From the NCBI RefSeq assembly GCF_024223415.1, contig NZ_CP100500.1: a stretch of 64,000 nucleotides of DNA; one strand, 5' to 3'. Under the pieces are notes generated by a model. It saw only the letters and a list, made by a program, of their open reading frames with translations, ran no database searches and had not been told where the DNA came from. Positions 31,177 to 42,496 of the stretch are shown piece by piece (the first letter of the stretch is position 1; the number at the start of each line of letters is the position of its first letter). A program made the position numbers and the translations under genes. The stretch is from Escherichia coli. GTDB taxonomy: Bacteria; Pseudomonadota; Gammaproteobacteria; Enterobacterales; Enterobacteriaceae.

Positions 31177-31183
31177 GGATTTT

Positions 31184-31196
31184 TGGTCCACGAGAG
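31184..31196. other. Putative distal att site (degenerate repeat of tRNA-Pro 3' end)
   Basis: tggtccacgagag versus tRNA 3' end tggtcggcacgagagg; imperfect, so the exact boundary is uncertain. Confidence 0.35.
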
Positions 31197-31447: not shown

Positions 31448-31729
31448 TTATCGCCGTAACCGCTCCGGCTTCTTCCAGTGGTACGTAATTTTTTCTTTCT
31501 CCCGATACAGTTCAACGCGGCGATTGTAGGCCAGCATTTCCAGAACGCGGATCCGTATGTCGCGCATATCCACGCCGTTAAGCTCAATACCGTCACGGCG
31601 CATCACCTCAGCAACCACACGCGCATAATTTTCGGCGGTCACGCTGTCCGGCTGCGTGGCCTGTTCGTCAGCCTGCTGGCTGATTCCGGCAACGCGACGG
31701 ATTAATCGCAGTAGTTCGGCTTCTGTCAT
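31448..31729 (-). CDS. Hypothetical protein, cos-adjacent
   Basis: 93-aa ORF, plausible composition; no family recognised. Confidence 0.45.
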   Translation of the reverse strand: MTEAELLRLIRRVAGISQQADEQATQPDSVTAENYARVVAEVMRRDGIELNGVDMRDIRIRVLEMLAYNRRVELYREKEKITYHWKKPERLRR

Positions 31730-31761: not shown

Positions 31762-31836
31762 TCGGGTCCTTCCTGGAATTATGGCCCGTTACGGGGCGTC
31801 GACCTCGCGGTTTTTCGCTATTTATGAGATTTTTTG
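31762..31836 (+). other. Lambda-like cos site, copy 1 (cosQ-cosN-cosB start, + orientation)
   Basis: cgggtccttcctgg...cccgttacg|GGGCGTCGACCT|cgcggtttttcgctatttatgag resembles lambda ACGGGTCCTTTCCGG...GGTTACG|GGGCGGCGACCT|CGCGGGTTTTCGCTATTTATGAAAA (lambda sequence from memory). Confidence 0.6.
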
Positions 31837-32285
31837 AGGGGGTGGTTGTTGTTTAATTGTTTGGTATATCTAATTGATAAGTAAGGTAAAAATAAAATAA
31901 ATACAACAACCTTACGGTGTATTTTGATGTCATTAATGTGAAAAAATTCAATGATATCAAATGGTTTTGTAAAAACATATGGTTGTTGTATCGCGTATTT
32001 GATGGCGTAACAGAAAGTGATTTTTAACTTTACCGCTCTGTAACTACGGATTATTCCATGCTGGCACGGAGAACGGCTACGGCATGACGCCACCCAGCCT
32101 ATACAGAACAGTAAAGCCGATAAATTGTTAATCACGCGCAGCAATGCGTGTGATTTTTGCACACTTCCGGTTAACGGGTACGATGTCCGGTTTGTTTGTA
32201 CATTTTTTGCACATGTCCGGTTCGCAGAAAGCATGTTTTTATATTTTTCATATAGTTAACTTGCAGAGAAACCGGACATGGATCC

Positions 32286-32360
32286 CGAAAAATTTTCATA
32301 AATAGTGAAAACGCGCGAGGTCGACGCCCCGTAACGGGTCCACATGCCGGAAAGGACCCG
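32286..32360 (-). other. Lambda-like cos site, copy 2 (inverted; reads cosQ-cosN-cosB on the minus strand)
   Basis: Minus strand reads cgggtcctttccggcatgtggacccgttacg|GGGCGTCGACCT|cgcgcgttttcactatttatgaaaattttt; closer to lambda than copy 1. Confidence 0.65.
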
Positions 32361-32384
32361 CAAAAAAAGCCGGATTTCTCCGGC
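32361..32384 (-). terminator. Terminator after the capsid-module operon
   Basis: Minus strand gccggagaaatccggc followed by a T-run. Confidence 0.5.
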
Positions 32385-32390
32385 CTTGTC

Positions 32391-32804
32391 TCAGATGGTT
32401 TTCAGTATGCGATCGATGTTGCCGTCATCGACCGGGTTTCTGCCATCGTATGCCATGCCAGCTGATACGGCTTTCGGGCTGTGCATGTCCATAAAGTTTT
32501 CAAAGGCTGAAGTAAGCTGTGGTGCAACCTTCGGGCGTTCCTGCTCTATGGTCATGCTAAGGATGCTTTTAGCCGTACCAACATCGATACAAGGCACGTT
32601 AGCCATTGCACGTAACAGCGGCTGGTAGTCGTCAGATTCATGAAGCGCCATAATCGCATCAGCGCGCTGCTTGTCCTGTTCTTCCAGTTTGTTTAGTCGG
32701 TGTATGGCCTCGTAGGTTGATAAACCTCTGTCAGCCATTGCCCGCGCTTCGGCTTTAAATTTACTCGCCAGCGGTAGCGTCATGATACTTTCATTCGTTG
32801 CCAT
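32391..32804 (-). CDS. Hypothetical protein, last gene of the capsid-module operon
   Basis: 137-aa ORF immediately downstream of the gpD-like gene; no family recognised. Confidence 0.55.
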   Translation of the reverse strand: MATNESIMTLPLASKFKAEARAMADRGLSTYEAIHRLNKLEEQDKQRADAIMALHESDDYQPLLRAMANVPCIDVGTAKSILSMTIEQERPKVAPQLTSAFENFMDMHSPKAVSAGMAYDGRNPVDDGNIDRILKTI

Positions 32805-32816
32805 CGTTCCCCCTGC

Positions 32817-33152
32817 TTATCGGGCCAGCGGCTGAACGGATACGCCGGAACCCGCAAAGGCGGCGCATTTTTTCGCATCGGTGTCGACGCTGTCAGGCCA
32901 GTTAACGGCGGCAATATTGAATATCCCCGTTTTGTAACACTGTGCTGATTTCTGCTTTGACGTGTCCACGGGGTGCGAAGTCAGATAAACAGCTTTGCCA
33001 GATTCCTGACCATCCCACGCCTTAAACTCGCCATTGTCTGCCAGCATCAGCGGGGTAAATTCCTGAATAACGCCAGCATCAGCGGCAAAATGTACCAGCG
33101 TCGTGGATACCTGCTGGCTGCCTGCAAATAACTCAATATATGGAGCGTCCAT
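32817..33152 (-). CDS. Head decoration protein, lambda gpD-like
   Basis: 111 aa; conserved blocks shared with lambda gpD as recalled (TPLMLxD...AWDG...YKxGxF...WP...KKxAFAG). Confidence 0.65.
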   Translation of the reverse strand: MDAPYIELFAGSQQVSTTLVHFAADAGVIQEFTPLMLADNGEFKAWDGQESGKAVYLTSHPVDTSKQKSAQCYKTGIFNIAAVNWPDSVDTDAKKCAAFAGSGVSVQPLAR

Positions 33153-33163
33153 AGAATCCCCCG

Positions 33164-34219
33164 TTAAGCAATTTTGACGGTAACAAATTTGCGAATATCT
33201 GCCGGTACCGGCTGCGGTGCGCTGTGCGTCTGCACGTACTCAATCGCCGGATCGCCGTCCTCAATCCAGTTTTTCGGGTAGTACATGTTTTGCGTTGCGC
33301 CCGTTCTTACCGCTTCCTGATCCATAATCGCACCATATGCCACAAGCCCTTTATTGTTGGTGTTACCCAGGACAAGCAAATCAGGCTCAAGGAAATATTT
33401 TTCGGTGCCGTCGCTGTCAGTGTATTTGCCGGAATAGACGATAAGGGCCAGATCACCAAGATAGCCTTTAAAGCTCACCACTTCGCCCAGGTTTTTACAG
33501 GCCAGCTCGGCGGCGGATTCTGAGCCACGGTAAAGATCGTACAGTTCACGGAATTTTTTAAAGCTGCGTAATGTGCGCCATGCCTCACCGCCCATAATCA
33601 TGACGTTGGCGGGGCAACCTGCCTGATCAGCATAAAGCTCGATGTCATAGATTGGGTCGTGCATGTCTTTATCCTGCTGGGACCATTTTTTACCACTGGC
33701 CTGCTGTATGATGCAGTTTTCCGGTATTTTCCAGTCGATTTCATAGCGTTCTATGCCTTCGCCCTCAATGATGTTTTTTCCGGTCGTTACCGCATTCACC
33801 GCCAGCCATTCCACGCGCGCCTTAATGGCGTTTATCTGGCGGCGCATGTTGCCAGTAATCAGGCGCATACGGCGGTAAGTTGGATCGTTAAGCTGTGCCG
33901 GATCTTCTCCAGCCATGCGCATGATGGTCTTTGTTGGATCGATTTCGTGCTTTGGCTTCATGTAGCCTGGTTTAATCGTGCTGGTTTCGTACCCTTTATC
34001 GCGCTGGACCTGACTACCCACCATAGGAGAACAGAACGCTGACATCGTAACCTCTTCAATGTCCAGGGTGTCCAGCATGATGTTTTGGGTGTTGAAGGTC
34101 GCCACGTTCGGGAAAAACAGCGTGGTAAACAGCGGACTAAATTTAAATTCCGAAATATCCCCGCGATTCAGGTACGCGAAAAGCTGGTTAGTTGTAAGTG
34201 CCGTTGCTTTGCCTGTCAT
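33164..34219 (-). CDS. Major capsid protein, lambda gpE-like
   Basis: 351 aa; blocks shared with lambda gpE as recalled (FKFxPLF, PGYMKPKHE, DPxYRRMR, YSGxY, YPKNW, GDPA). Confidence 0.8.
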   Translation of the reverse strand: MTGKATALTTNQLFAYLNRGDISEFKFSPLFTTLFFPNVATFNTQNIMLDTLDIEEVTMSAFCSPMVGSQVQRDKGYETSTIKPGYMKPKHEIDPTKTIMRMAGEDPAQLNDPTYRRMRLITGNMRRQINAIKARVEWLAVNAVTTGKNIIEGEGIERYEIDWKIPENCIIQQASGKKWSQQDKDMHDPIYDIELYADQAGCPANVMIMGGEAWRTLRSFKKFRELYDLYRGSESAAELACKNLGEVVSFKGYLGDLALIVYSGKYTDSDGTEKYFLEPDLLVLGNTNNKGLVAYGAIMDQEAVRTGATQNMYYPKNWIEDGDPAIEYVQTHSAPQPVPADIRKFVTVKIA

Positions 34220-34425
34220 TATTCACCTCCGTGAACCTGATTGATACCCAGCGCCGCACGTAAATAGGTACGCACCTGCCAGCCTGTTGACGGCTCAACC
34301 ATCGCCAGCGGATCAAGTCCTGCCGCAATGCCTGCTTTTACATTCTGCTGGTGGCGTTCCTTGAGCGCCTCCACGATGTCGGGGCTTATGTAGACCGTCA
34401 CCCCGCCTTTTTTCTCTTCTGCCAT
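34219..34425 (-). CDS. Hypothetical small protein, first gene of the capsid-module operon
   Basis: 68-aa ORF whose stop overlaps the gpE-like start. Confidence 0.45.
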   Translation of the reverse strand: MAEEKKGGVTVYISPDIVEALKERHQQNVKAGIAAGLDPLAMVEPSTGWQVRTYLRAALGINQVHGGE

Positions 34426-34592
34426 AGTCAGAAATTCCTCTTTGACTTAAAAAATCATAACTGGATGTTCATCCAGTCCTGATTATAATCATGATTGCAT
34501 TTTGCGCAACAATATTGAGTTACGTTGCAAATTATGAAATGATTATCCCGATCATGTGTGCCAGTGCACCATAAAAAACCTCGTATACAAAA

Positions 34593-34660
34593 GCCCGATA
34601 AGCCCCCTGTGACCTTATCGGGCTTTTTTTAGGCGTAAAAAAGCCGGATTGCTCCGGCTT
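34593..34660. terminator. Pair of terminator hairpins between the finO-like gene and the capsid operon
   Basis: gcccgataagccccctgtgaccttatcgggc + T-run, and agccggattgctccggct preceded by an A-run. Confidence 0.5.
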
Positions 34661-34683
34661 CGTCTCTTCATGTGGTCAGGGTT

Positions 34684-35268
34684 TTATGCTTTCCGTACGC
34701 CCGAGGAACTGGCATTTTTCAGAATAATATTATGCCCTGCTGGTGGCTTACCGTTATGCTTATTTTCTGCCTTCATGTTTCTGCGCTCCTGCTGTTTTTT
34801 CTTCATCTCATCCAGTCGCTTCCCCGCGTTCAACTGGTGCTCCTGTGTCACCTCCCCGCACGGATGGCCTTTCAGGTCGTAACGCACGCCACCAGCCATC
34901 AGGGAACGGTAATATCGCACTGAACTGACATAATACGCCAGCGTTGCGCGAAGCGCTCCCTGACCTAATGAAATACCTCTCGCAGTAATATCCTCCATCA
35001 GGTCATCAAATATGCCAACCTTAAGCGGTCTGGGCGATTCCTGGCTGAAAAGTTCAGGCCAGAGCGCGGCAAGGCGTTCAACGCGTCTGATATTTTTTTT
35101 CCGGCTCTTTTCTGATTTGCGTTTTGCTGCCGTCTTCTGTTGTGTTTTCTGCTCGCGGCTCTGCTTTTGCGCTGGTGTGGTTTTATCCGGCTGTTCAGCC
35201 TCCTGCGTCTTTTTCTGCGGTGTGCCGTATATGCCTTTTGGTTTTCGGTTAATGGTCAGCTTTGTCAT
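34684..35268 (-). CDS. FinO/ProQ-domain RNA-binding protein with a basic N-terminal extension
   Basis: Likely start MTKLTINRKPK (SD ggggagaa upstream); C-terminal region shares blocks with the ProQ N-terminal FinO domain as recalled (LWPELF, RPLKVGIFDDL, DLxGxPCGE). Confidence 0.65.
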   Translation of the reverse strand: MTKLTINRKPKGIYGTPQKKTQEAEQPDKTTPAQKQSREQKTQQKTAAKRKSEKSRKKNIRRVERLAALWPELFSQESPRPLKVGIFDDLMEDITARGISLGQGALRATLAYYVSSVRYYRSLMAGGVRYDLKGHPCGEVTQEHQLNAGKRLDEMKKKQQERRNMKAENKHNGKPPAGHNIILKNASSSGVRKA

Positions 35269-35347
35269 GTTCTCCCCCTTTGTGCTGTTCCACCAGCGGC
35301 ATCTGCTACCCCGTGTCGCTCCCGCTGGTGTCGTGTTTCCCCGCCTG

Positions 35348-35668
35348 TTAATAACCGTCATCATTTACGTTATCAGGGTAATCACGCCATATTTCATCAG
35401 TAAGCGACGGTAGCCCCATCTGTTGTATTGTCCTGTCTGCGGCCCTTCTGACTGCGTGAACATCATAACGGTTTTCAGGTATCGGGCGCTTTGCCTTCCT
35501 GATACATTCCCTTGCTCTCATTGCCGCAAGTTCTCTGTGCCTGTCTTCCTGAAGAGTAATCATCACATCCTGCCACCTTCTGGCAGCCCGTCGCCACAGT
35601 CCCCTGCTCTCGAGTTCTTCTGCTGTCGCGTCGCTTATTGTCCGGTTCTTCGGTGTGCTGTTGTTCAT
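35348..35668 (-). CDS. PerC-family transcriptional activator-like protein
   Basis: 106 aa with AEELESRGLWRRAARRWQDVM, resembling the conserved PerC/Pch motif as recalled. Confidence 0.5.
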   Translation of the reverse strand: MNNSTPKNRTISDATAEELESRGLWRRAARRWQDVMITLQEDRHRELAAMRARECIRKAKRPIPENRYDVHAVRRAADRTIQQMGLPSLTDEIWRDYPDNVNDDGY

Positions 35669-35685: not shown

Positions 35686-36096
35686 TCAGAAGGGTATATC
35701 ATCTCCGTAGGGGTCATCGCCTCCCGCTGGTGGCTCATTCCCCTGTGTGCCTGTGGTTTTGCGTCTGTTCCCGCCATGACGTGCCGCACGCGCACTGATT
35801 ACGCTGTCTGCGATAACCTGCCAGCCCTGCCGCGTTTCCCCGTTCTGTCCGGTCCACTGGCTCACCTGCATGTTACCCGCCACGCTCAGGAGTTCACCTT
35901 TGCGGTGCTTTGCCAGTGCTTCGGCCTGTCTGCCAAACGCCAGCACAGATAACCACATCGTCGCCGTTCCGTCATCTGCCTGGCTGCACGGAAGGGGGAC
36001 CGCCATACTCGCCATCGCCATTTGTGTCCCCTTGCTGGTGGTCTTTAACTGCGGGTCAGCCACCAGCCGCCCGTAAGCCGCTATCTGTGCTGTCAT
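35686..36096 (-). CDS. ssb: Single-stranded DNA-binding protein (phage-type SSB)
   Basis: 136 aa; OB-fold pattern (GRLVADPQLK...WLSVLAFGRQAE...) and acidic C-terminal tail GDDIPF typical of SSB. Confidence 0.7.
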   Translation of the reverse strand: MTAQIAAYGRLVADPQLKTTSKGTQMAMASMAVPLPCSQADDGTATMWLSVLAFGRQAEALAKHRKGELLSVAGNMQVSQWTGQNGETRQGWQVIADSVISARAARHGGNRRKTTGTQGNEPPAGGDDPYGDDIPF

Positions 36097-36344
36097 GCTG
36101 TATGCTCTCCGGTTTTAACGTTGATGGTTGTCACCTGTTCCGCTCCGGCAATCTCCCGTTCTGTCAGCGTGGCAAAATTTGCCGCTACCGTTGTCATGAA
36201 TGCGCTTATCAGTTCGGGATGTGCTTTCGCGTATCCTTCTCCCGCGTGGCGGTCTATCGTTCTGATTGCCACCTTTAAGGCGTGCTCTGTCATGTCTAAC
36301 GCTTTATATTTTGGCGCTGTCTTATCTCTGGTTTTTCTGTTCAT
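36093..36344 (-). CDS. Hypothetical protein
   Basis: ORF 36093-36374; likely start MNRKTRDK, just downstream of the iterons. Confidence 0.45.
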   Translation of the reverse strand: MNRKTRDKTAPKYKALDMTEHALKVAIRTIDRHAGEGYAKAHPELISAFMTTVAANFATLTEREIAGAEQVTTINVKTGEHTA

Positions 36345-36560
36345 TCCCCACCACTCCCCACTTTTGCTCCCCACTTTTTAAATTCCCCACTTGCTCCCCA
36401 CCTCGTTTTTTGAGTGAATCTAATGCTTTGTTTTTCATTGCGTTTTTTACTCCCCACTTTTTTGGATGTATACAGGTGGGAAAGTGGGGAATTATGTTTC
36501 AATTTTGTTAAATTCCCCACTCTCCCCACTTTTACTACCCACTTTTTACAGTGGGTAAAC
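36344..36560. repeat. Iteron cluster, putative island replication origin
   Basis: At least nine direct and inverted copies of (a/c)TCCCCAC(TTTT), e.g. actccccactttt, gctccccactttt, attccccacttg, plus inverted gtgggaaagtgggga, next to the primase/helicase gene. Confidence 0.6.
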
Positions 36561-37961
36561 ATCATCCCCATCGACACAAATCACGCCGTCTTTTTCCAGC
36601 TTGGACAGCCAGCGCCGGAAGTGCTTCATCTCATACCCCAGCTTTTTCATATCGTCGCGGAGAAGGGCGATAGTGCATGGCTCTTTGTGTGCCGTCCGCG
36701 TTCTGATGCACTGCCATAGCGCGGTATGGTTTTCCGTCTTGTTGCCTGCCTCCTCGATGCGCTCCAGTTCAACGGGAGAGCGCGGCTTATCAACCACCAC
36801 CAGCGACGTGATTAACTCCCCGTCAGCGTCGGTAAAAAGCTCCACCACGCGTAAATCGTAGGCGGCCTCTTTCAGTTCCTCCGCGTCCTTCATTTTGGTG
36901 CAGGATATAACCAGGGCTTTACTGTCTGCACCTTCTCGGCGAATACGGTATTCAGCGTCCAGAGATGCACGAAATGCACTGGAACCACGCGCCCCCTTTG
37001 TTTCATCCTTGCCGGAATGGTGGACCACCAGCACCGTGGCCCCTGTGCGTCGTTTCAGGTCGTCACATCCACGGATAAACGCCCCCATATCCCGCGCGTC
37101 ATTTTCATCATTACCGCCAAAGCAACGCGCCAGCGTATCCAGAATAATCATGCGTACCGGTTTACCCGTTTCCCGTTCAACCTGGCGGGAAGCGATAACC
37201 ATTTCATCAACATCAAGCGGGGCTGCCGGAAAAATCGGGCGGTTTACCAGGTACAGATTTTTCACCCGTTCATCATTAACGATTTCCCATGCCTTGATAC
37301 GACGGGGGACACCAATGCCACCTTCACCGACAACATACATCACCGAACCATGCGCCACCCTGCGGCCTCCCCAGTGGCGCCCCGTGGCAACATGACACGC
37401 CCAGGAACACGCAAGGAATGATTTATAGGAACCGCTCGCACCGTATGTGCTGCACAATGAATTAGCCGGAATCACGCCCTTAACGACATAATCAAGCTGT
37501 GTGTCGTATCCTGCAGATCCAATGCTCATGGGTAGCGTGGTTTTTCGCTGGCTGTATTGCTCATCAGTAAGTATTTCCCCGCGCTCTGCCTGTTCGCGGA
37601 TCCGTTGCAGGTAGTCGCGCCATTCCTCCCGCTTCTGGCTGTGCATTCCCTCGGGGTAATAACTCGCATCCCGTATACCTGCCGCCGCCAGTTTTTGCCC
37701 GATGGCATTAATATTTGATGGCTTGATGTGGCCTGCCTTGTACAGCCGGACACAATAGCGACCATCGTCGATAATTTTCAGGTCTGCCAGTTCGTCAAGC
37801 TGACTGTCTCCCAGCCATACTGGCGGGACGTTATCGCCAGCAAGTCGCCCGTCCTGTTCCTGCCATTGTTTTGCGTGCGCCCAGGCATCACTACCTGCAA
37901 AAATAATGACTTCGGTCATTTTGTTGTGTGGCTGTTTTTTTAAGTTCGGTGCCAGTTTCAT
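36546..37961 (-). CDS. Replication protein: putative primase/helicase (RecA-like NTPase, AAA_25/RepA-like)
   Basis: 471 aa; P-loop-like GASGSYKSF and Walker B-like MIILDTLARCF; position typical of satellite pri-rep genes. Confidence 0.55.
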   Translation of the reverse strand: MKLAPNLKKQPHNKMTEVIIFAGSDAWAHAKQWQEQDGRLAGDNVPPVWLGDSQLDELADLKIIDDGRYCVRLYKAGHIKPSNINAIGQKLAAAGIRDASYYPEGMHSQKREEWRDYLQRIREQAERGEILTDEQYSQRKTTLPMSIGSAGYDTQLDYVVKGVIPANSLCSTYGASGSYKSFLACSWACHVATGRHWGGRRVAHGSVMYVVGEGGIGVPRRIKAWEIVNDERVKNLYLVNRPIFPAAPLDVDEMVIASRQVERETGKPVRMIILDTLARCFGGNDENDARDMGAFIRGCDDLKRRTGATVLVVHHSGKDETKGARGSSAFRASLDAEYRIRREGADSKALVISCTKMKDAEELKEAAYDLRVVELFTDADGELITSLVVVDKPRSPVELERIEEAGNKTENHTALWQCIRTRTAHKEPCTIALLRDDMKKLGYEMKHFRRWLSKLEKDGVICVDGDDVYPL

Positions 37962-38257
37962 TTTTTATCCCTGAATCCGTTAATCATGGTTTTCATCTTC
38001 TGAATATTGGCGCGTGCTTTCTCCCTGCTGGTTGGTTTACTGCGGGGCGCTGCCTGTACCAGAGAAAAATCACGCCGGAACTGATAAACAGGCATCACGC
38101 AGTCATATTCGTAGCCATCACGGCGGTAAGTGATGCGCCGTTCTGCCACGCCTTTAATCGTTACCGTACCGCCGTAGTTATCACGGAAAATATCGCCGGG
38201 ACGGATTTCAGGCCGAGCGGGGCCGCTGGCAGTAAAGCCAGAATTTTTCTTTTTCAT
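37958..38257 (-). CDS. Hypothetical protein
   Basis: 99-aa ORF overlapping the primase start (ATGA). Confidence 0.45.
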   Translation of the reverse strand: MKKKNSGFTASGPARPEIRPGDIFRDNYGGTVTIKGVAERRITYRRDGYEYDCVMPVYQFRRDFSLVQAAPRSKPTSREKARANIQKMKTMINGFRDKK

Positions 38258-38261
38258 GGTT

Positions 38262-38462
38262 TTATTTTCCTGTCAGTGATTCCGGCTTTATTCCGGCGCG
38301 AATACAGGCTTCAGAAAAAAAAGCCAGAGAACCAATAACCTCATTATTTCTAAGGCGGCATTGCGATTTCACTTTCCCTTTATCCAGGAATATCAAAACG
38401 CGCCCCGTATAATCAGATGGCACATTAAGCACTACAGGTAAGTGCGCTTCATGATTATTCAT
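38262..38462 (-). CDS. Hypothetical small protein
   Basis: ORF 38262-38531; likely start MNNHEAH (66 aa). Confidence 0.35.
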   Translation of the reverse strand: MNNHEAHLPVVLNVPSDYTGRVLIFLDKGKVKSQCRLRNNEVIGSLAFFSEACIRAGIKPESLTGK

Positions 38463-38742
38463 GGCTAACCACCTCCTGGAATTTTCTTCTGTAACGCGCC
38501 TCTGCCACATATTCAGCATAGTCCGACGCAATATTGAGAATATCGCTACCCGTTCCTGAATGTTCGGCGGTTTCCAGTAAAAAACATGCAGCTTTTACCA
38601 TGTCAGCAACACATAACAGCGCAATATCTGTATCTTCCGGTGTGCCATCAAATTCCTGTTTCAGGGCATTAAAACGATCATCACGCATAACCCCATATTC
38701 ACAATCAGCAATCAGGATGGCTTTGGCCTCATTCAGTGCCAT
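38455..38742 (-). CDS. Hypothetical protein (C-terminal, protein-like part of a 595-aa stop-free frame; true start uncertain, could extend to about 38898)
   Basis: Last ~95 codons of frame 38455-40242 are acidic and helix-like; upstream part looks non-protein-like. Confidence 0.4.
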   Translation of the reverse strand: MALNEAKAILIADCEYGVMRDDRFNALKQEFDGTPEDTDIALLCVADMVKAACFLLETAEHSGTGSDILNIASDYAEYVAEARYRRKFQEVVSHE

Positions 38743-38896
38743 ATCAGCGGTAAGCTGTGCGTAGGCCAGCAAATGCGGGATTATTGCCCCTGTATATTCC
38801 GGCTCTCTGATAATGTGGTCGGATGTGTTGATTAAATAGTTTGTGCGAAAAATGCACCTGTAACCATCAGTTAACAACGGATATACAGGGGGGACC

Positions 38897-39067
38897 ATGA
38901 ATGATAAGGGGGTGCCGTTTGATGTGCTCCTGCAAAAGCTGAATGCTGCACGCGCCGCAAGGGAACGTGAGCGCATGAGTAATAACCCTGTCCCTCCTGA
39001 ATTACCTCGCCCTGAACATTTTCCGCTTGAGGATTTCATCAGGGGACGAATCCGAACAAAACGATAA
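38897..39067 (+). CDS. Small ORF a (56 aa); paralogous to ORF c
   Basis: MNDKGVPFDVLLQKLNAARAARERERMSNNPVPPELPRPEHFPLEDFIRGRIRTKR; G-rich SD-like sequence upstream; shares the FPLE-FI / RERER motif with ORF c. Confidence 0.3.
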   Translation: MNDKGVPFDVLLQKLNAARAARERERMSNNPVPPELPRPEHFPLEDFIRGRIRTKR

Positions 39068-39310
39068 CCGCCGCCGTGATATGAGGCATCACGACGCAAT
39101 GCATTACAGGTGAGCACCATGAACAAATCCATATTATCCCCCACAGTTCTGGACGTAAACACAAAGCAGCGACAGATATTATTACGCGCCGTCATTAAAG
39201 CCAGACACGAGAAATTAAACCAAATCTTAAAATAAGATACGCCGCTACCGCTGTAAGTCTTCATCAGAAACAGAAAACGCCAGAGCAGATGAGCACGGAG
39301 GTAACTCTTT

Positions 39311-39505
39311 ATGAAAATAAACGAATCAGGGGAAATTACCGAAGCCAGCGTGGTACGCCAGCGGAGGCGGGAACGACGGGTACGGCCCCCCGCGCCATCC
39401 GATAATTTCCCGCTTGAGCGCTTCATCAGTGAACGGCCCCGCATACGCTGGAACGGCACAACCCCATACCCCGAGGAGAGACAGACAAAAAACAAACAGC
39501 GATGA
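39311..39505 (+). CDS. Small ORF c (64 aa); paralogous to ORF a
   Basis: SD ggagg 8 nt upstream; contains RRRERRVRPPAPSDNFPLERFISERP. Confidence 0.3.
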   Translation: MKINESGEITEASVVRQRRRERRVRPPAPSDNFPLERFISERPRIRWNGTTPYPEERQTKNKQR

Positions 39506-39681
39506 TGAAATCTGGAGGCCAATACCATCACGCAGCCATCAGGAGATTGCTGACGCGCTTCCTGTTCGCTGGTGGCCTCGATGGTAATCACGCGCGGTTG
39601 TGCAGTGCTCAGGGCGATAAAACGCCACACAAAGGCCGTTTGTGTGTGCGCAAGGCGTGGGGTATGCTGTGTTCCAGCCAT
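39460..39681 (-). CDS. Icd-like (host cell division inhibitor-like) protein; 3' end undefined because the frame has no stop until 38455
   Basis: Strong SD (aggag, 9-nt spacer) before ATG at 39681; MAGTQHTPRLAHTQTAFVWRFIALS...TSEQEARQQ... resembles Icd-like proteins of satellite elements as recalled. Confidence 0.35.
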
Positions 39682-39808
39682 AATCGTTACTCCTGTTAAC
39701 GGTTTGGTTAGACGCCCTGCATGTGTGCCACCACTGCGGGGCGTTGTTTTTGTGGTGTCATTGGTATACATTGTCACCTTAATGGCATTATCACTACAGA
39801 GGTTTATC

Positions 39809-39985
39809 ATGTCAACCAATGACAACAAAAAAGAAAGATTTTCCGTACAACTACGCCTAGACGCAGATTTGTTCGAGCGTTTAAGTATTGCCATGAAAGA
39901 AGATGGCGACGATAACCGATCTGGATGGATCAAAAGGCTTTTACGACGCGAATTAGATAAACGCGGCATTGAGTCAAAAAGCTGA
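39809..39985 (+). CDS. Ribbon-helix-helix (Arc/Mnt-like) DNA-binding protein
   Basis: 58 aa; ERFSVQLRLDADLFERLSIAMKEDGDDNRSGWIKRLLRRE parallels the Arc repressor pattern (beta-strand then two helices) as recalled. Confidence 0.5.
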   Translation: MSTNDNKKERFSVQLRLDADLFERLSIAMKEDGDDNRSGWIKRLLRRELDKRGIESKS

Positions 39986-40078
39986 CAGCCAACCAGCAAG
40001 CCAGCACACTGATCACATTGCCCACCAGCCGCAAATGTGGCATTGTTGGTGATGCTTTTGTTTTCCCTTGTTCCCACT

Positions 40079-40108
40079 GGCGACCCTTTTGCGGTCGCCT
40101 TTGTTTTG
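40079..40108 (+). terminator. Rho-independent terminator after the RHH gene
   Basis: ggcgacccttttgcggtcgcc + tttgtttt. Confidence 0.55.
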
Positions 40109-40202
40109 CCTGTTATCCGGCAATTGTGGCGCTTCGCCACACGGTTTATATAACCCCACTGCTCAGATTCATTTTTTGCGCAGTAGGTTAATTGTTCGCA
40201 AG

Positions 40203-40231
40203 GGCGGCTCCTTATCGGGGCCGCTTTTTTC
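40203..40231 (+). terminator. Second plus-strand terminator before alpA
   Basis: gcggctccttatcggggccgc + tttttt. Confidence 0.5.
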
Positions 40232-40256
40232 GTGTTTGTCATATCTGTGATACCCG

Positions 40257-40463
40257 TTAAGCAGCCGTTCCGCGTGCTTCCTGTTCGCGTTCTTTCTGCC
40301 AGGCCAACACATCATCCTCATACCATCCGCGACGGCGTAAACCAACGCGAAAACCCTGCGGAAATTCTCCGGCGTTGATCATGCTTTGCAGCGTGCTGTC
40401 TGCCTTGATGTGGATAATTTTTTTTACTTCCTGGCGAAAGATAATTTTTCTGATTGCTTCCAT
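40257..40463 (-). CDS. alpA: AlpA-family regulator / excisionase-like protein
   Basis: 68 aa; HTH region LQSMINAGEFPQGFRVGLRRRGWYEDDVLAW typical of AlpA-family proteins. Confidence 0.7.
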   Translation of the reverse strand: MEAIRKIIFRQEVKKIIHIKADSTLQSMINAGEFPQGFRVGLRRRGWYEDDVLAWQKEREQEARGTAA

Positions 40464-40630: not shown

Positions 40631-40882
40631 TTACCGCCATTTTTTGGGCCTGCCTCCGATCTTCATAGATGCCGGACGTACGACCTTATCAATACTTACC
40701 GCCAGATTTCTGGAAGCGCCACGGGATACCAGAAAATCTACTACCTGTTTTTTTGATGGGGCCGTCGTCCTGTCCTCCGGATCGTAGGTTGACCAAAATT
40801 CATGCTGAACCATCAGGGCCAGTTGCAGCCCGTCGCAATTGCATCTGATATTTTTTTGCATCTTAACGGTTTCATGTTTCAC
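40631..40882 (-). CDS. Hypothetical protein between int and alpA
   Basis: 83-aa ORF with basic C-terminus (GGRPKKWR). Confidence 0.4.
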   Translation of the reverse strand: MKHETVKMQKNIRCNCDGLQLALMVQHEFWSTYDPEDRTTAPSKKQVVDFLVSRGASRNLAVSIDKVVRPASMKIGGRPKKWR

Positions 40883-40959: not shown

Positions 40960-42219
40960 CTACACGGCTCGGATACCCCTTTTACCACTGGCGAGGGTTA
41001 CGCCCGTCGCCGCAGCCTCGACAAATTCGCCCCACCAGCGCATCAGCACGATGCGTTTTTCTATGTAGTTGCTCCGGTTGTATGCCCGTCTAACTTCGTT
41101 GGTGTCGACGTGGGCAAGTGCCGCCTCTATTACGTCCGGCTCGAATCCTTCCTCGTTCGCTGCTGTGCTGAATATGGCGCGTAATCCATGAGACACCAGC
41201 ACGCCAGCGAATCCCATACGCCGCAATGCTGCGTTAGCTGTCTGGCTGTTCATCGGCTGCTGTGGGTCTTTCAGACTTGGGAAAACGTAATTGCGGTGGT
41301 GGCTGATTGGTTTCATGGCCTCCAGCACCGCCATAGCCTGACCGGAAAGCGGGATAACGTGATCCCTGCGCATCTTCATGCGTCCGGCAGGTATCGTCCA
41401 TTGCTTCGCGTCCAGGTTGATTTCATCCCACCGCGTTGATGACGCTTCGGCGGGACGGGTTACGGTCAGTAACTGCCATTCAATCAGTAATCTGGTCTGC
41501 CGTTCTGTTGCCGATACTGATAAAGCCTGCATAAGCTCGGGCAGCTGTTCGGGGCGGATTGTTGGCATATGTTTTTTTACAGGTGAGGGAAACGCCTTAC
41601 GCACATTCATAGCCGGATTGGCATCAATCAGCCCACTGTTGGCGGCGTAATCCATTACCTCATTAACGCGCTGTAAAACCCGCTTGAGTGTTTCCAGGTT
41701 GCCGCGCTCCTTGATGGGGGTAAGCACTTCAACGAACCTTCGGGCGGTGAGGGTATCTATTGGCGTGTTGCCGATGAACGGGAATACATATTTATCCAGC
41801 GAACGCCAGATGTCTTTAATCGTGTTGGGGGCCAGATTCTGGCTGATTTTCACCTGGTACCATGCCGCCGCCACATTTTCGAACGTGTTCCCTTGTCTTC
41901 GGGCCTCTGTCTCTCTTTTTTGCCTCTCGTGGTCCTGCGGGTCAGTTCCGGCACTGATTAACGTCCTGTACTCGCTACGGCGTTTTCTGGCATCAGCCAG
42001 GGAAACATCTTCAAGCGATCCAAAACTCAGCAATATTCTTTTTTTGTCCGATGGTCGGTAGTAGGAAAATCTCCAGAGTTTTGATCCAGACGGTTTGACC
42101 AGGAGAAAAAGCCCTCCGCCGTCCTGCAGGGTGTACTCCTTTTGCGCTGGTCTGGCTGCTTTGATCTGCACTGTGGTTAATGGGTGTGTTTTTCTCGCCA
42201 TATGTCTATGATTCCACAC
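40960..42219 (-). CDS. int: Tyrosine recombinase / integrase (P4-type)
   Basis: 419 aa adjacent to tRNA-Pro; N-terminal arm-binding region (LFLLVKPSGSKLWRFSYY) and C-terminal catalytic domain (HGLRAIFST...LAHV...RAYNRSNY). Confidence 0.9.
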   Translation of the reverse strand: MWNHRHMARKTHPLTTVQIKAARPAQKEYTLQDGGGLFLLVKPSGSKLWRFSYYRPSDKKRILLSFGSLEDVSLADARKRRSEYRTLISAGTDPQDHERQKRETEARRQGNTFENVAAAWYQVKISQNLAPNTIKDIWRSLDKYVFPFIGNTPIDTLTARRFVEVLTPIKERGNLETLKRVLQRVNEVMDYAANSGLIDANPAMNVRKAFPSPVKKHMPTIRPEQLPELMQALSVSATERQTRLLIEWQLLTVTRPAEASSTRWDEINLDAKQWTIPAGRMKMRRDHVIPLSGQAMAVLEAMKPISHHRNYVFPSLKDPQQPMNSQTANAALRRMGFAGVLVSHGLRAIFSTAANEEGFEPDVIEAALAHVDTNEVRRAYNRSNYIEKRIVLMRWWGEFVEAAATGVTLASGKRGIRAV

Positions 42220-42419: not shown

Positions 42420-42496
42420 TGGTCGGCACGAGAGGATTTGAACCTCCGACCCCCGACACCCCATGACGGTGCGCTACCAGGCTGCGCTACGTGCCG
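42420..42496 (-). tRNA. proL: tRNA-Pro (proL-type)
   Basis: Reverse complement reads CGGCACGTAGCGCAGCCTGGTAGCGCACCGTCATGGGGTGTCGGGGGTCGGAGGTTCAAATCCTCTCGTGCCGACCA (77 nt, cloverleaf-compatible). Confidence 0.9.

Follow-up and report, generated by a model that had tools for sequence, protein, structure and literature searches.

EcCICFT073 is the model Gram-negative cos phage-inducible chromosomal island (PICI), for which helper-induced excision, replication and high-frequency transfer have been shown, and its helpers, lambda, phi80 and CFT073 prophage 4, are lambdoid (PMC6092414). In 2018, its genes c1499 and c1500 were named as capsid and head decoration genes, respectively, and the supplementary table of that study lists c1498 (68 amino acids (aa)), c1499 (capsid, 351 aa) and c1501 (137 aa), the latter without an assigned function (PMC6092414). 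Capsid genes are reported to be the commonest late gene in Gram-negative PICIs, being found in 21 of 29 reference PICIs (PMC10111431), and those of EcCICFT073 have been described as present and not required, both in the review of Dokland 2019 and by Tommasini et al. 2023 (PMC10111431). Here, a related island is described from a 64,000-nucleotide (nt) stretch of Escherichia coli DNA (NZ_CP100500.1, assembly GCF_024223415.1), which is referred to as the window, with a main focus on the four-gene capsid operon p68-E'-D'-Nu3' at positions 32391-34425 on the minus strand. This operon encodes a matched lambda-type set of coat (E'), cement (D') and shortened scaffold (Nu3') proteins. The module and its capsid genes are already known, and the novelty implied by the sequence-only reading of this stretch does not hold, since the genes were named in 2018 and a crystal structure of the capsid protein has been deposited (PDB 3BQW). 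What is added here is the Nu3-type assignment of c1501, together with evidence that the operon is a selected, satellite-specific unit.

The genes c1498-c1501 of EcCICFT073 match the window module in gene order and in length (68, 351, 111 and 137 aa), with 93.8% DNA identity. The two islands have the same backbone of integrase, alpA, replication genes, SSB and a PerC-family regulator; in both, a pair of lambda-like cos copies in inverted orientation comes after the operon, and the terminal gene encodes 93 aa. They differ in their site, as the window island is integrated at tRNA-Pro by yejM, whereas EcCICFT073 lies between roxA and phoQ. In addition, the window island has a RepA-type helicase where EcCICFT073 has a D5-type primase, an extra ProQ/FinO-domain gene upstream of the operon, an rppA gene (c1503) that is cut to its last 22 codons and a G-to-T change in both cosN copies.

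Satellites that encode their own capsid protein have also been described as capsid-forming PICIs (cf-PICIs; 10.1101/2022.09.08.507074). These elements add the small and large terminase subunits (TerS and TerL), portal, protease and head-tail connectors and take just the tails of the helper, whereas none of these additional genes were detected in the window island. Helper-embedded PICIs (PMC10111431) belong to the same satellite family and carry their own E-type capsid gene; they are located inside prophage late genes, whereas the window island occupies a chromosomal tRNA site. Two of the relatives compared below, L005 and L008, are likewise embedded in prophages. With a probability of roughly 40%, the module of the window island is read here as a shell kit that forms or joins lambda-sized heads and is redundant with helper proteins, which would make it a partial step to capsid self-sufficiency and not a small-capsid device.

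The capsid operon and its products

E' (33164-34219, minus strand, 351 aa) is a homologue of c1499 and is assigned as a lambda gpE-type (HK97-fold) major capsid protein. Residues 6-350 match the PHROG 'major head protein' family phrog_29 (E 3.5e-109), and the alignment with lambda gpE (E 5e-94) spans 343 residues, the full length of the protein, at 43% identity. The alignment with gpE is collinear, with just three gaps of 1-4 residues each, and the solved lambda capsid chain 7VI9 is matched at E 8e-82. All 351 residues align with 3BQW_A, which is deposited as 'Putative capsid protein of prophage' (E 5.8e-229), and the identity to this CFT073 protein is 95-96%; the HK97 fold of 3BQW is taken from the deposit and the literature. 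An E' homologue with 84% identity also carries a precomputed PF03864 (Phage_cap_E) match.

D' (32817-33152, minus strand, 111 aa), a homologue of c1500, is assigned as a head decoration protein of the lambda gpD/phage 21 SHP type. It matches the 'head decoration' family phrog_49 (E 1.5e-27), phage 21 SHP (1TD0, E 4.6e-13) and lambda gpD (1C5E, E 3.9e-9; 7VII, E about 4e-9), with 36% identity to the latter protein. PF02924 (HDPD) is found in a D' homologue with 85% identity.

The third protein of the set, Nu3' (32391-32804, minus strand, 137 aa), is a homologue of c1501. Profile comparisons identify it as a truncated homologue of the lambda internal scaffold Nu3, an assignment that is new here. 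The protein matches its own family profile, phrog_1999, at E 8e-61, and residues 117-200 of lambda Nu3 match the same profile at E 2.7e-26. A further match (E 9e-8) is to the gpC-type profile phrog_53, 'head maturation protease', and falls at its C-terminal end, on positions 494-566 out of 583. A phmmer search of 1.84 billion protein representatives revealed a 195-aa Nu3-like bridging protein (P0041, E 6.9e-6), which consists of three Nu3-motif copies and aligns with Nu3 at E 2e-16. Nu3' and Nu3 have the motif IMxL.E...PxxxxxxAKxxL in common, and the homology includes a C-terminal tail that reads NPxxDxxIDRILKTI in the satellite and NPASDAVNDLLNTPV in Nu3. The AlphaFold2 model of Nu3' is all-helical, with low confidence for the C-terminal residues 109-137.

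The full architecture of Nu3 is not found in Nu3', as the N-terminal half is missing and just Nu3 residues 117-200 align. Its gene stands alone and is not nested in a gpC-type protease gene, no S49 protease is present in the island, and tblastn gave no match to Nu3' in 50,697 phage genomes. The lack of the N-terminal half, of the enclosing protease gene and of a phage match points to a satellite-specific mini-scaffold rather than a Nu3 orthologue. No match to the 137-aa protein was obtained in Pfam, NCBIfam or a PDB sequence search, Foldseek of its model against BFVD gave nothing significant, and a literature search yielded no relevant paper joining Nu3 and PICIs. Some 137-aa relatives bear the NCBI name 'phage head-tail connector protein'; this name is unsupported, and the evidence favours Nu3. 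The helical model of Nu3' would suit an internal scaffold and is not diagnostic of one, and scaffold action during head maturation is a prediction.

The first gene encodes p68 (34219-34425, minus strand, 68 aa), a homologue of CFT073 c1498 that is translationally coupled to E'. It is conserved and E'-coupled even in satellites that are missing Nu3'. No Pfam or NCBIfam match was found for p68, and its modest structure model gave no significant fold match. Two identities were considered and rejected: lambda gpW has an equal length (68 aa), yet the proteins do not align and belong to separate PHROGs, and a relationship to gpC/Nu3 received an hhalign probability below 1%. The suggestion that the two then uncharacterized proteins are scaffold or size-determining candidates is therefore retained in part: the 137-aa protein is scaffold-like, on the match of Nu3 117-200 described above, while p68 shows no Nu3 or gpC relation.

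The four genes are tightly spaced. The p68 stop overlaps the E' start (TAATG), gaps of 11 and 12 nt separate the remaining genes, and a Shine-Dalgarno sequence precedes every gene. The operon ends at a hairpin resembling an intrinsic terminator, GGCCGGAGAAATCCGGC followed by T7 (32362-32385, minus strand, read from the sequence), and a lambda-like cos copy lies about 60 nt further on. The order E' then D' is the reverse of D then E in lambda; the lambda order is C/Nu3-D-E, whereas that of the window is E'-D'-Nu3'. No counterpart of lambda B, C, W, FI, FII, Nu1 or A is present in the island, tblastn with these seven proteins giving no match better than E 0.3, and p68 in turn has no counterpart in lambda. 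Portal, protease, terminase and head-completion genes were not found in the island by tblastn, PGAP or PHROG annotation, nor were tail or lysis genes. The sequence-only reading had called the 351-aa and 111-aa products gpE- and gpD-like, in an order reversed relative to lambda, and had placed them in a four-gene operon that ends at cos in a satellite without portal, protease or terminase. The coordinates, spacing and searches given above agree with all of these calls, and the matches of the 351-aa protein to the major-head profile and to HK97-fold gpE are full-length.

The region upstream of the operon (34426-34640, minus strand) contains a candidate sigma-70 promoter, TTGCGC-16 nt-TATAAT, with its -10 element at 34485-34490, as read from the sequence. 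This region is conserved across five satellites, including the palindromic motifs ATTTGCAAC and ATTGC-N7-GCAAT, and ATTTCATAATTTGCAAC and the perfect TATAAT are among the parts that are strongly conserved between satellites. The leader also has a hairpin (34459-34478) with a T-run behind it, which was flagged by a consensus scan and is not retained in the divergent L005. We infer that 34426-34640 acts as the promoter of the capsid operon, and the region may also be a site for activator or antitermination control.

Lineage, distribution and selection

The distribution of the module was surveyed with positions 32340-34480 against 5426 complete E. coli genomes. It was found in 597 of them (~11%), at full length in 593 of the 597, and the copies are almost always 90-95% identical at the DNA level. 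Carriers include CFT073, Nissle 1917 and O157:H7. Among the E' proteins of E. coli and Edwardsiella satellites, identities are 62-97%, and among phage E proteins they are 55-59%, whereas the identity between the two groups is 42-46%. No phage record among the 50,697 is more than 47% identical to E', and none of the phage D homologues is more than 45% identical to D', which shows the same split between satellites and phages. The word-indexed homologue search reached close relatives only. The comparisons place E' and D' in a satellite-specific clade of their own, which is, on these identities and this distribution, old and widespread.

All four operon genes are under purifying selection. The ratios of nonsynonymous to synonymous divergence (dN/dS) are 0.08-0.13 for E', 0.10-0.22 for D', 0.12-0.44 for p68 and, with pairs of fewer than four synonymous changes excluded, 0.2-0.34 for Nu3'. 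For E', D' and Nu3', the ratios extend over synonymous divergences of up to roughly 1-2 substitutions per site. It is barely credible, in view of these values, that the operon is a decaying, functionless relic of captured phage late genes. The lack of a laboratory phenotype and the loss of rpp from the window island would agree with such decay; however, dN/dS of 0.08-0.34 for E', D' and Nu3', open reading frames (ORFs) that are intact in 593 of 597 genomes and conservation across genera effectively refute it.

Related satellites have been observed inside prophages. In Edwardsiella tarda (L008, 1810-11606), a lambda-like prophage has its portal gene split by the satellite, which encodes p70, E' and D' without a Nu3-like gene; the E' of this satellite is 46-48% identical to the E protein of the surrounding prophage. 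The E. coli satellite L005 (5469-15502) abuts P2-type baseplate and tail genes in a prophage, and its Nu3-like gene is a 115-aa version with just 42% identity to that of the window. ON470596, a 19.9-kb 'phage' record with E and D, was considered as a further satellite and rejected, as the record is just part of a myovirus prophage whose head is of the lambda type.

The embedded relatives raise the question of whether the genes are backup copies from a helper-embedded lifestyle, replacing head functions of the helper that are interrupted or delayed and being of little present use in a chromosomal island. Such a role has been proposed in the literature on helper-embedded PICIs (PMC10111431), and both L005 and L008 are embedded in late regions of prophages. 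However, the Edwardsiella satellite interrupts the portal gene and not E or D, yet has E' and D'; identities of 42-48% to helper E proteins indicate that these are not recent captures, and purifying selection continues in chromosomal islands. As an account of the window module, this origin is quite improbable.

Possible functions of the module

The analogy with Ccm, the capsid homologue of SaPIbov5, a pathogenicity island (SaPI) of Staphylococcus aureus, has been raised explicitly and tested on EcCICFT073 (PMC6092414). Particle DNA from a lambda lysogen with EcCICFT073 was all phage-sized, and induction of CFT073 with its native helper gave no PICI-monomer band (PMC6092414). Lambda plaques were not recovered when c1499 or c1500 was deleted, and with these deletions the resident helper gave 3.8e3 and 8.7e3 transductants per ml, vs 8e3, so that transfer was unchanged (PMC6092414). 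The c1499::cat island is transferred well by lambda and phi80 (PMC6092414). An explanation of these negatives by a module that was broken by c1501::tetA was rejected: the primer arms put tetA immediately after the c1501 stop, and the tetA-marked island therefore had an unbroken module. In the cat-marked island, c1499 is indeed missing.

Ccm of SaPIbov5 resembles E' as an HK97-fold homologue of the helper capsid protein in a cos satellite without portal or terminase. It leads to small isometric capsids and a strong block of the helper, whereas neither small capsids nor interference were found for the EcCICFT073 module, and Ccm has no accompanying decoration or scaffold homologue. CpmB of SaPI1 and Nu3' are both short, helical proteins of satellites in which the C-terminal part of a helper-type scaffold is retained, without a sequence relation between the two. 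CpmB acts on the helper coat and shifts it from T=7 to T=4, whereas Nu3' has its own coat partner and no size change has been seen.

The sequence-only reading had proposed a Ccm-like redirection to small capsids. In this scenario, E' with Nu3' and p68 as size determinants would force small one-genome capsids that exclude the helper, as do SaPIbov5 Ccm or SaPI1 CpmB. The C-terminal Nu3/gpC region kept by Nu3' parallels CpmB, which carries the capsid-binding C-terminal motif of the helper scaffold, and small heads are made by PmCI172, a Pasteurella PICI with a capsid homologue. By rough volume scaling, a T=3 lambda-type shell would hold ~13-14 kb, to be compared with the 11.2-kb island. SaPI transfer also survives cpmAB deletions, so that unchanged transfer is by itself no decisive argument. 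In EcCICFT073, however, the 94%-identical module was intact and gave phage-sized DNA with lambda and no monomer band with the native helper, and deletion of c1499 or c1500 gave no relief of interference, whereas the rppA deletion by itself fully restored lambda plaques. E' is, moreover, collinear with gpE. Size redirection is contradicted by these results on the model element with lambda and the native helper, and is regarded as very doubtful.

Interference with lambda has been traced to another gene of EcCICFT073. When each gene downstream of ori was cloned, c1503 (rppA) alone inhibited lambda, and deletion of rppA restored lambda plaques to a titre near that without the PICI (PMC6739421). 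Rpp is inactive on HK97 and other phages whose TerS is unrelated (PMC6739421). This gap leaves room for E', D' and Nu3' as dominant-negative mimics that spoil the heads of competing lambdoid phages, either as a second line beside Rpp or in protection of the host. Their clade is distinct from the helper proteins yet recognisably similar, as mimics should be, Nu3' is the C-terminal scaffold part alone, several interference or immunity functions are common in PICIs, and the module is kept in the rpp-less window island. On the other hand, no gene other than c1503 inhibited lambda when cloned singly, the rppA deletion brought lambda almost to its PICI-free titre, a poison has no obvious need for its own decoration protein, and no module-sensitive phage is known. 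Targeted interference fails for lambda and is considered rather unlikely.

The reading of the operon as a shell kit for lambda-sized heads can be outlined as follows. Upon helper induction, the four proteins would be made from the operon's own promoter. They would co-assemble, nucleated on the helper portal, and would be matured by a gpC-type protease of the helper. The resulting lambda-sized heads would be formed from, or partly from, satellite subunits, and the helper terminase would fill them with PICI concatemers from cos. In the laboratory, the kit would be redundant with the E, D and Nu3 of the helper, which would account for the lack of a phenotype. This reading is supported by the identity of the parts, by the divergence of coat, cement and scaffold as a unit, by selection, by the full-length module in 593 of 597 carrier genomes, by the tight operon with its ribosome-binding sites and conserved upstream region and by the adjacent lambda-like cos, as well as by the occurrence of satellites of this type inside prophages with lambda-type head genes. 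The phage-sized packaged DNA and the lambdoid helpers of EcCICFT073 fit full-size heads.

Several points weigh against the shell kit. Expression of E', D' and Nu3' and their presence in particles are predictions only. The c1499 and c1500 deletions left transfer by the native helper unchanged, and the c1499::cat island moves with lambda and phi80 (PMC6092414), indicating that transfer did not require these proteins in those settings. E' is just 43% identical to gpE, and its fit to the portal and protease of a helper is uncertain. The trio is not universal, as Nu3' is missing from the Edwardsiella satellite, p68 is not explained by this account, and the rpp-less window island may be poorly mobilisable.

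A bolder version is also conceivable, although its chances are small. With certain natural lambdoid helpers, p68-E'-D'-Nu3' would build satellite-made heads on stolen portal and protease, making the island an intermediate between classical PICIs, which take over whole helper capsids, and cf-PICIs, which take tails only. Such heads might have a smaller T number suited to one or two 11-kb genomes, and in that case the negative results in the literature would be due to the choice of helpers and marked islands.

The island that carries the module

The window is a piece of E. coli chromosome, with ccmF-H, narP and yejO to the left of the island and tRNA-Pro(GGG) and yejM to the right. The island, of ~11.2 kb, lies between yejO and tRNA-Pro(GGG), and every gene is on the minus strand. 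Its ends are marked by TGGTC(GG)CACGAGAG, an attachment (att) core that lies in the 3' end of tRNA-Pro (42420-42434) and recurs as an imperfect copy at 31183-31196, giving an imperfect att repeat of 13-15 nt. From the tRNA inwards, the genes are an integrase (40960-42219), an 83-aa gene (40631-40882), alpA (40257-40463), a zone of small Icd-like genes (38262-40242), a DUF4222 gene (37958-38257), a RepA-type helicase (36546-37961, phrog_2850 match at E 1e-248), a 93-aa gene (36093-36374), SSB (35686-36096), a PerC-family regulator (35348-35668) and the ProQ/FinO-domain gene (34684-35364). At the distal end, beyond the second cos copy, lies a conserved 93-aa protein (31448-31729, minus strand, phrog_1561, E 1e-56), which is under purifying selection (dN/dS 0.08-0.20) and also occurs in CFT073, O157 and L005.

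Three iterons are located directly downstream of the RepA-type helicase gene (36362-36547). They are copies of TTTTACTCCCCACTTTTT with a spacing of 83-85 nt, and shorter inverted CCCCAC motifs are found close by; this region is probably the replication origin of the satellite. The ProQ/FinO-domain protein, of an RNA-chaperone family, matches the ProQ and FinO models at E ~4e-21, under their cut-offs. Its gene, which CFT073, MS 21-1 and O157 do not have, is an insertion that separates the PerC-like gene from the capsid operon. The terminator behind this gene (34637-34666) and that of the capsid operon (32363-32392) are copies with 90% identity. At 38455-40242 (minus strand), several small genes are joined, for lack of stop codons, into one 595-aa ORF to which PGAP gives the name 'host cell division inhibitor Icd-like protein': its family matches are confined to residues 188-246 (Icd/repressor-like) and 474-594 (phrog_2512), and relatives have several small genes at this position.

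An Rfam scan of the island gave the tRNA as its sole match. No ORF of the island matches Sid, Delta or Psu in PHROG, NCBIfam or PGAP, so that a P4-like sid-delta-psu hijack operon was not found. The PerC-like 106-aa protein and the 93-aa protein were considered as Rpp and rejected, having no significant match to solved Rpp chains or other PDB entries.

Two lambda-like cos copies follow the operon. Copy A (cosQ/cosN and the start of cosB; 32288-32360, minus strand) has its cosN, GGGCGTCGACCT, at 32318-32329, and copy B (31763-31835, plus strand), inverted relative to copy A, has its cosN at 31794-31805. The two are arms of a 73-nt inverted repeat with 84% complementarity. In each copy, cosN and the first cosB bases are nearly identical to those of lambda (~40 of the first 45 bases of the lambda left end), after which the sequences diverge. 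Both cosN copies read GGGCGTCGACCT and not GGGCGGCGACCT, so that position 6 of the lambda cohesive end is changed from G to T, which creates GTCGAC; CFT073 cosN retains the lambda sequence. The cosB-like flanks look swapped relative to CFT073 and MS 21-1: the flank adjoining the capsid operon has CCGGACAT repeats, like the cos2 flank of CFT073, and the other resembles the cos1 flank of MS 21-1, which suggests recombination or inversion between the cos arms.

The segment between the cos copies (31836-32287, 452 nt) is AT-rich and contains no credible gene. The rppA remnant within it consists of the last 22 codons (32033-32098, minus strand), and no other TerS or Rpp match was found in the island, whereas the relatives CFT073, O157 and MS 21-1 have an rpp or TerS-like gene between the cos copies. 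In terms of classification, the window island has the integrase and AlpA at one end, the att site, the size, the replication gene with an adjacent probable origin and the helper-type cosN with divergent cosB that mark Gram-negative cos PICIs, and it does not have the Rpp/TerS-like gene between the cos copies, which is characteristic, not universal, of the class. On its gene content, the island is therefore assigned as a Gram-negative cos PICI of the EcCICFT073 type, integrated at tRNA-Pro(GGG), and as a degraded or variant member. Transfer of an EcCICFT073 rppA mutant by lambda and phi80 was significantly reduced (PMC6739421), and with rpp lost the window island may thus be poorly mobilisable. 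The exact island variant was found in only 4 of the 5426 complete E. coli genomes.

The capsid module that it carries is present in ~11% of these genomes, including CFT073, Nissle 1917 and O157:H7, yet no phenotype has been reported for it. Purifying selection on a co-diverged coat, cement and truncated-scaffold set that is clearly distinct from all phage versions speaks for a genuine function that has so far escaped notice.

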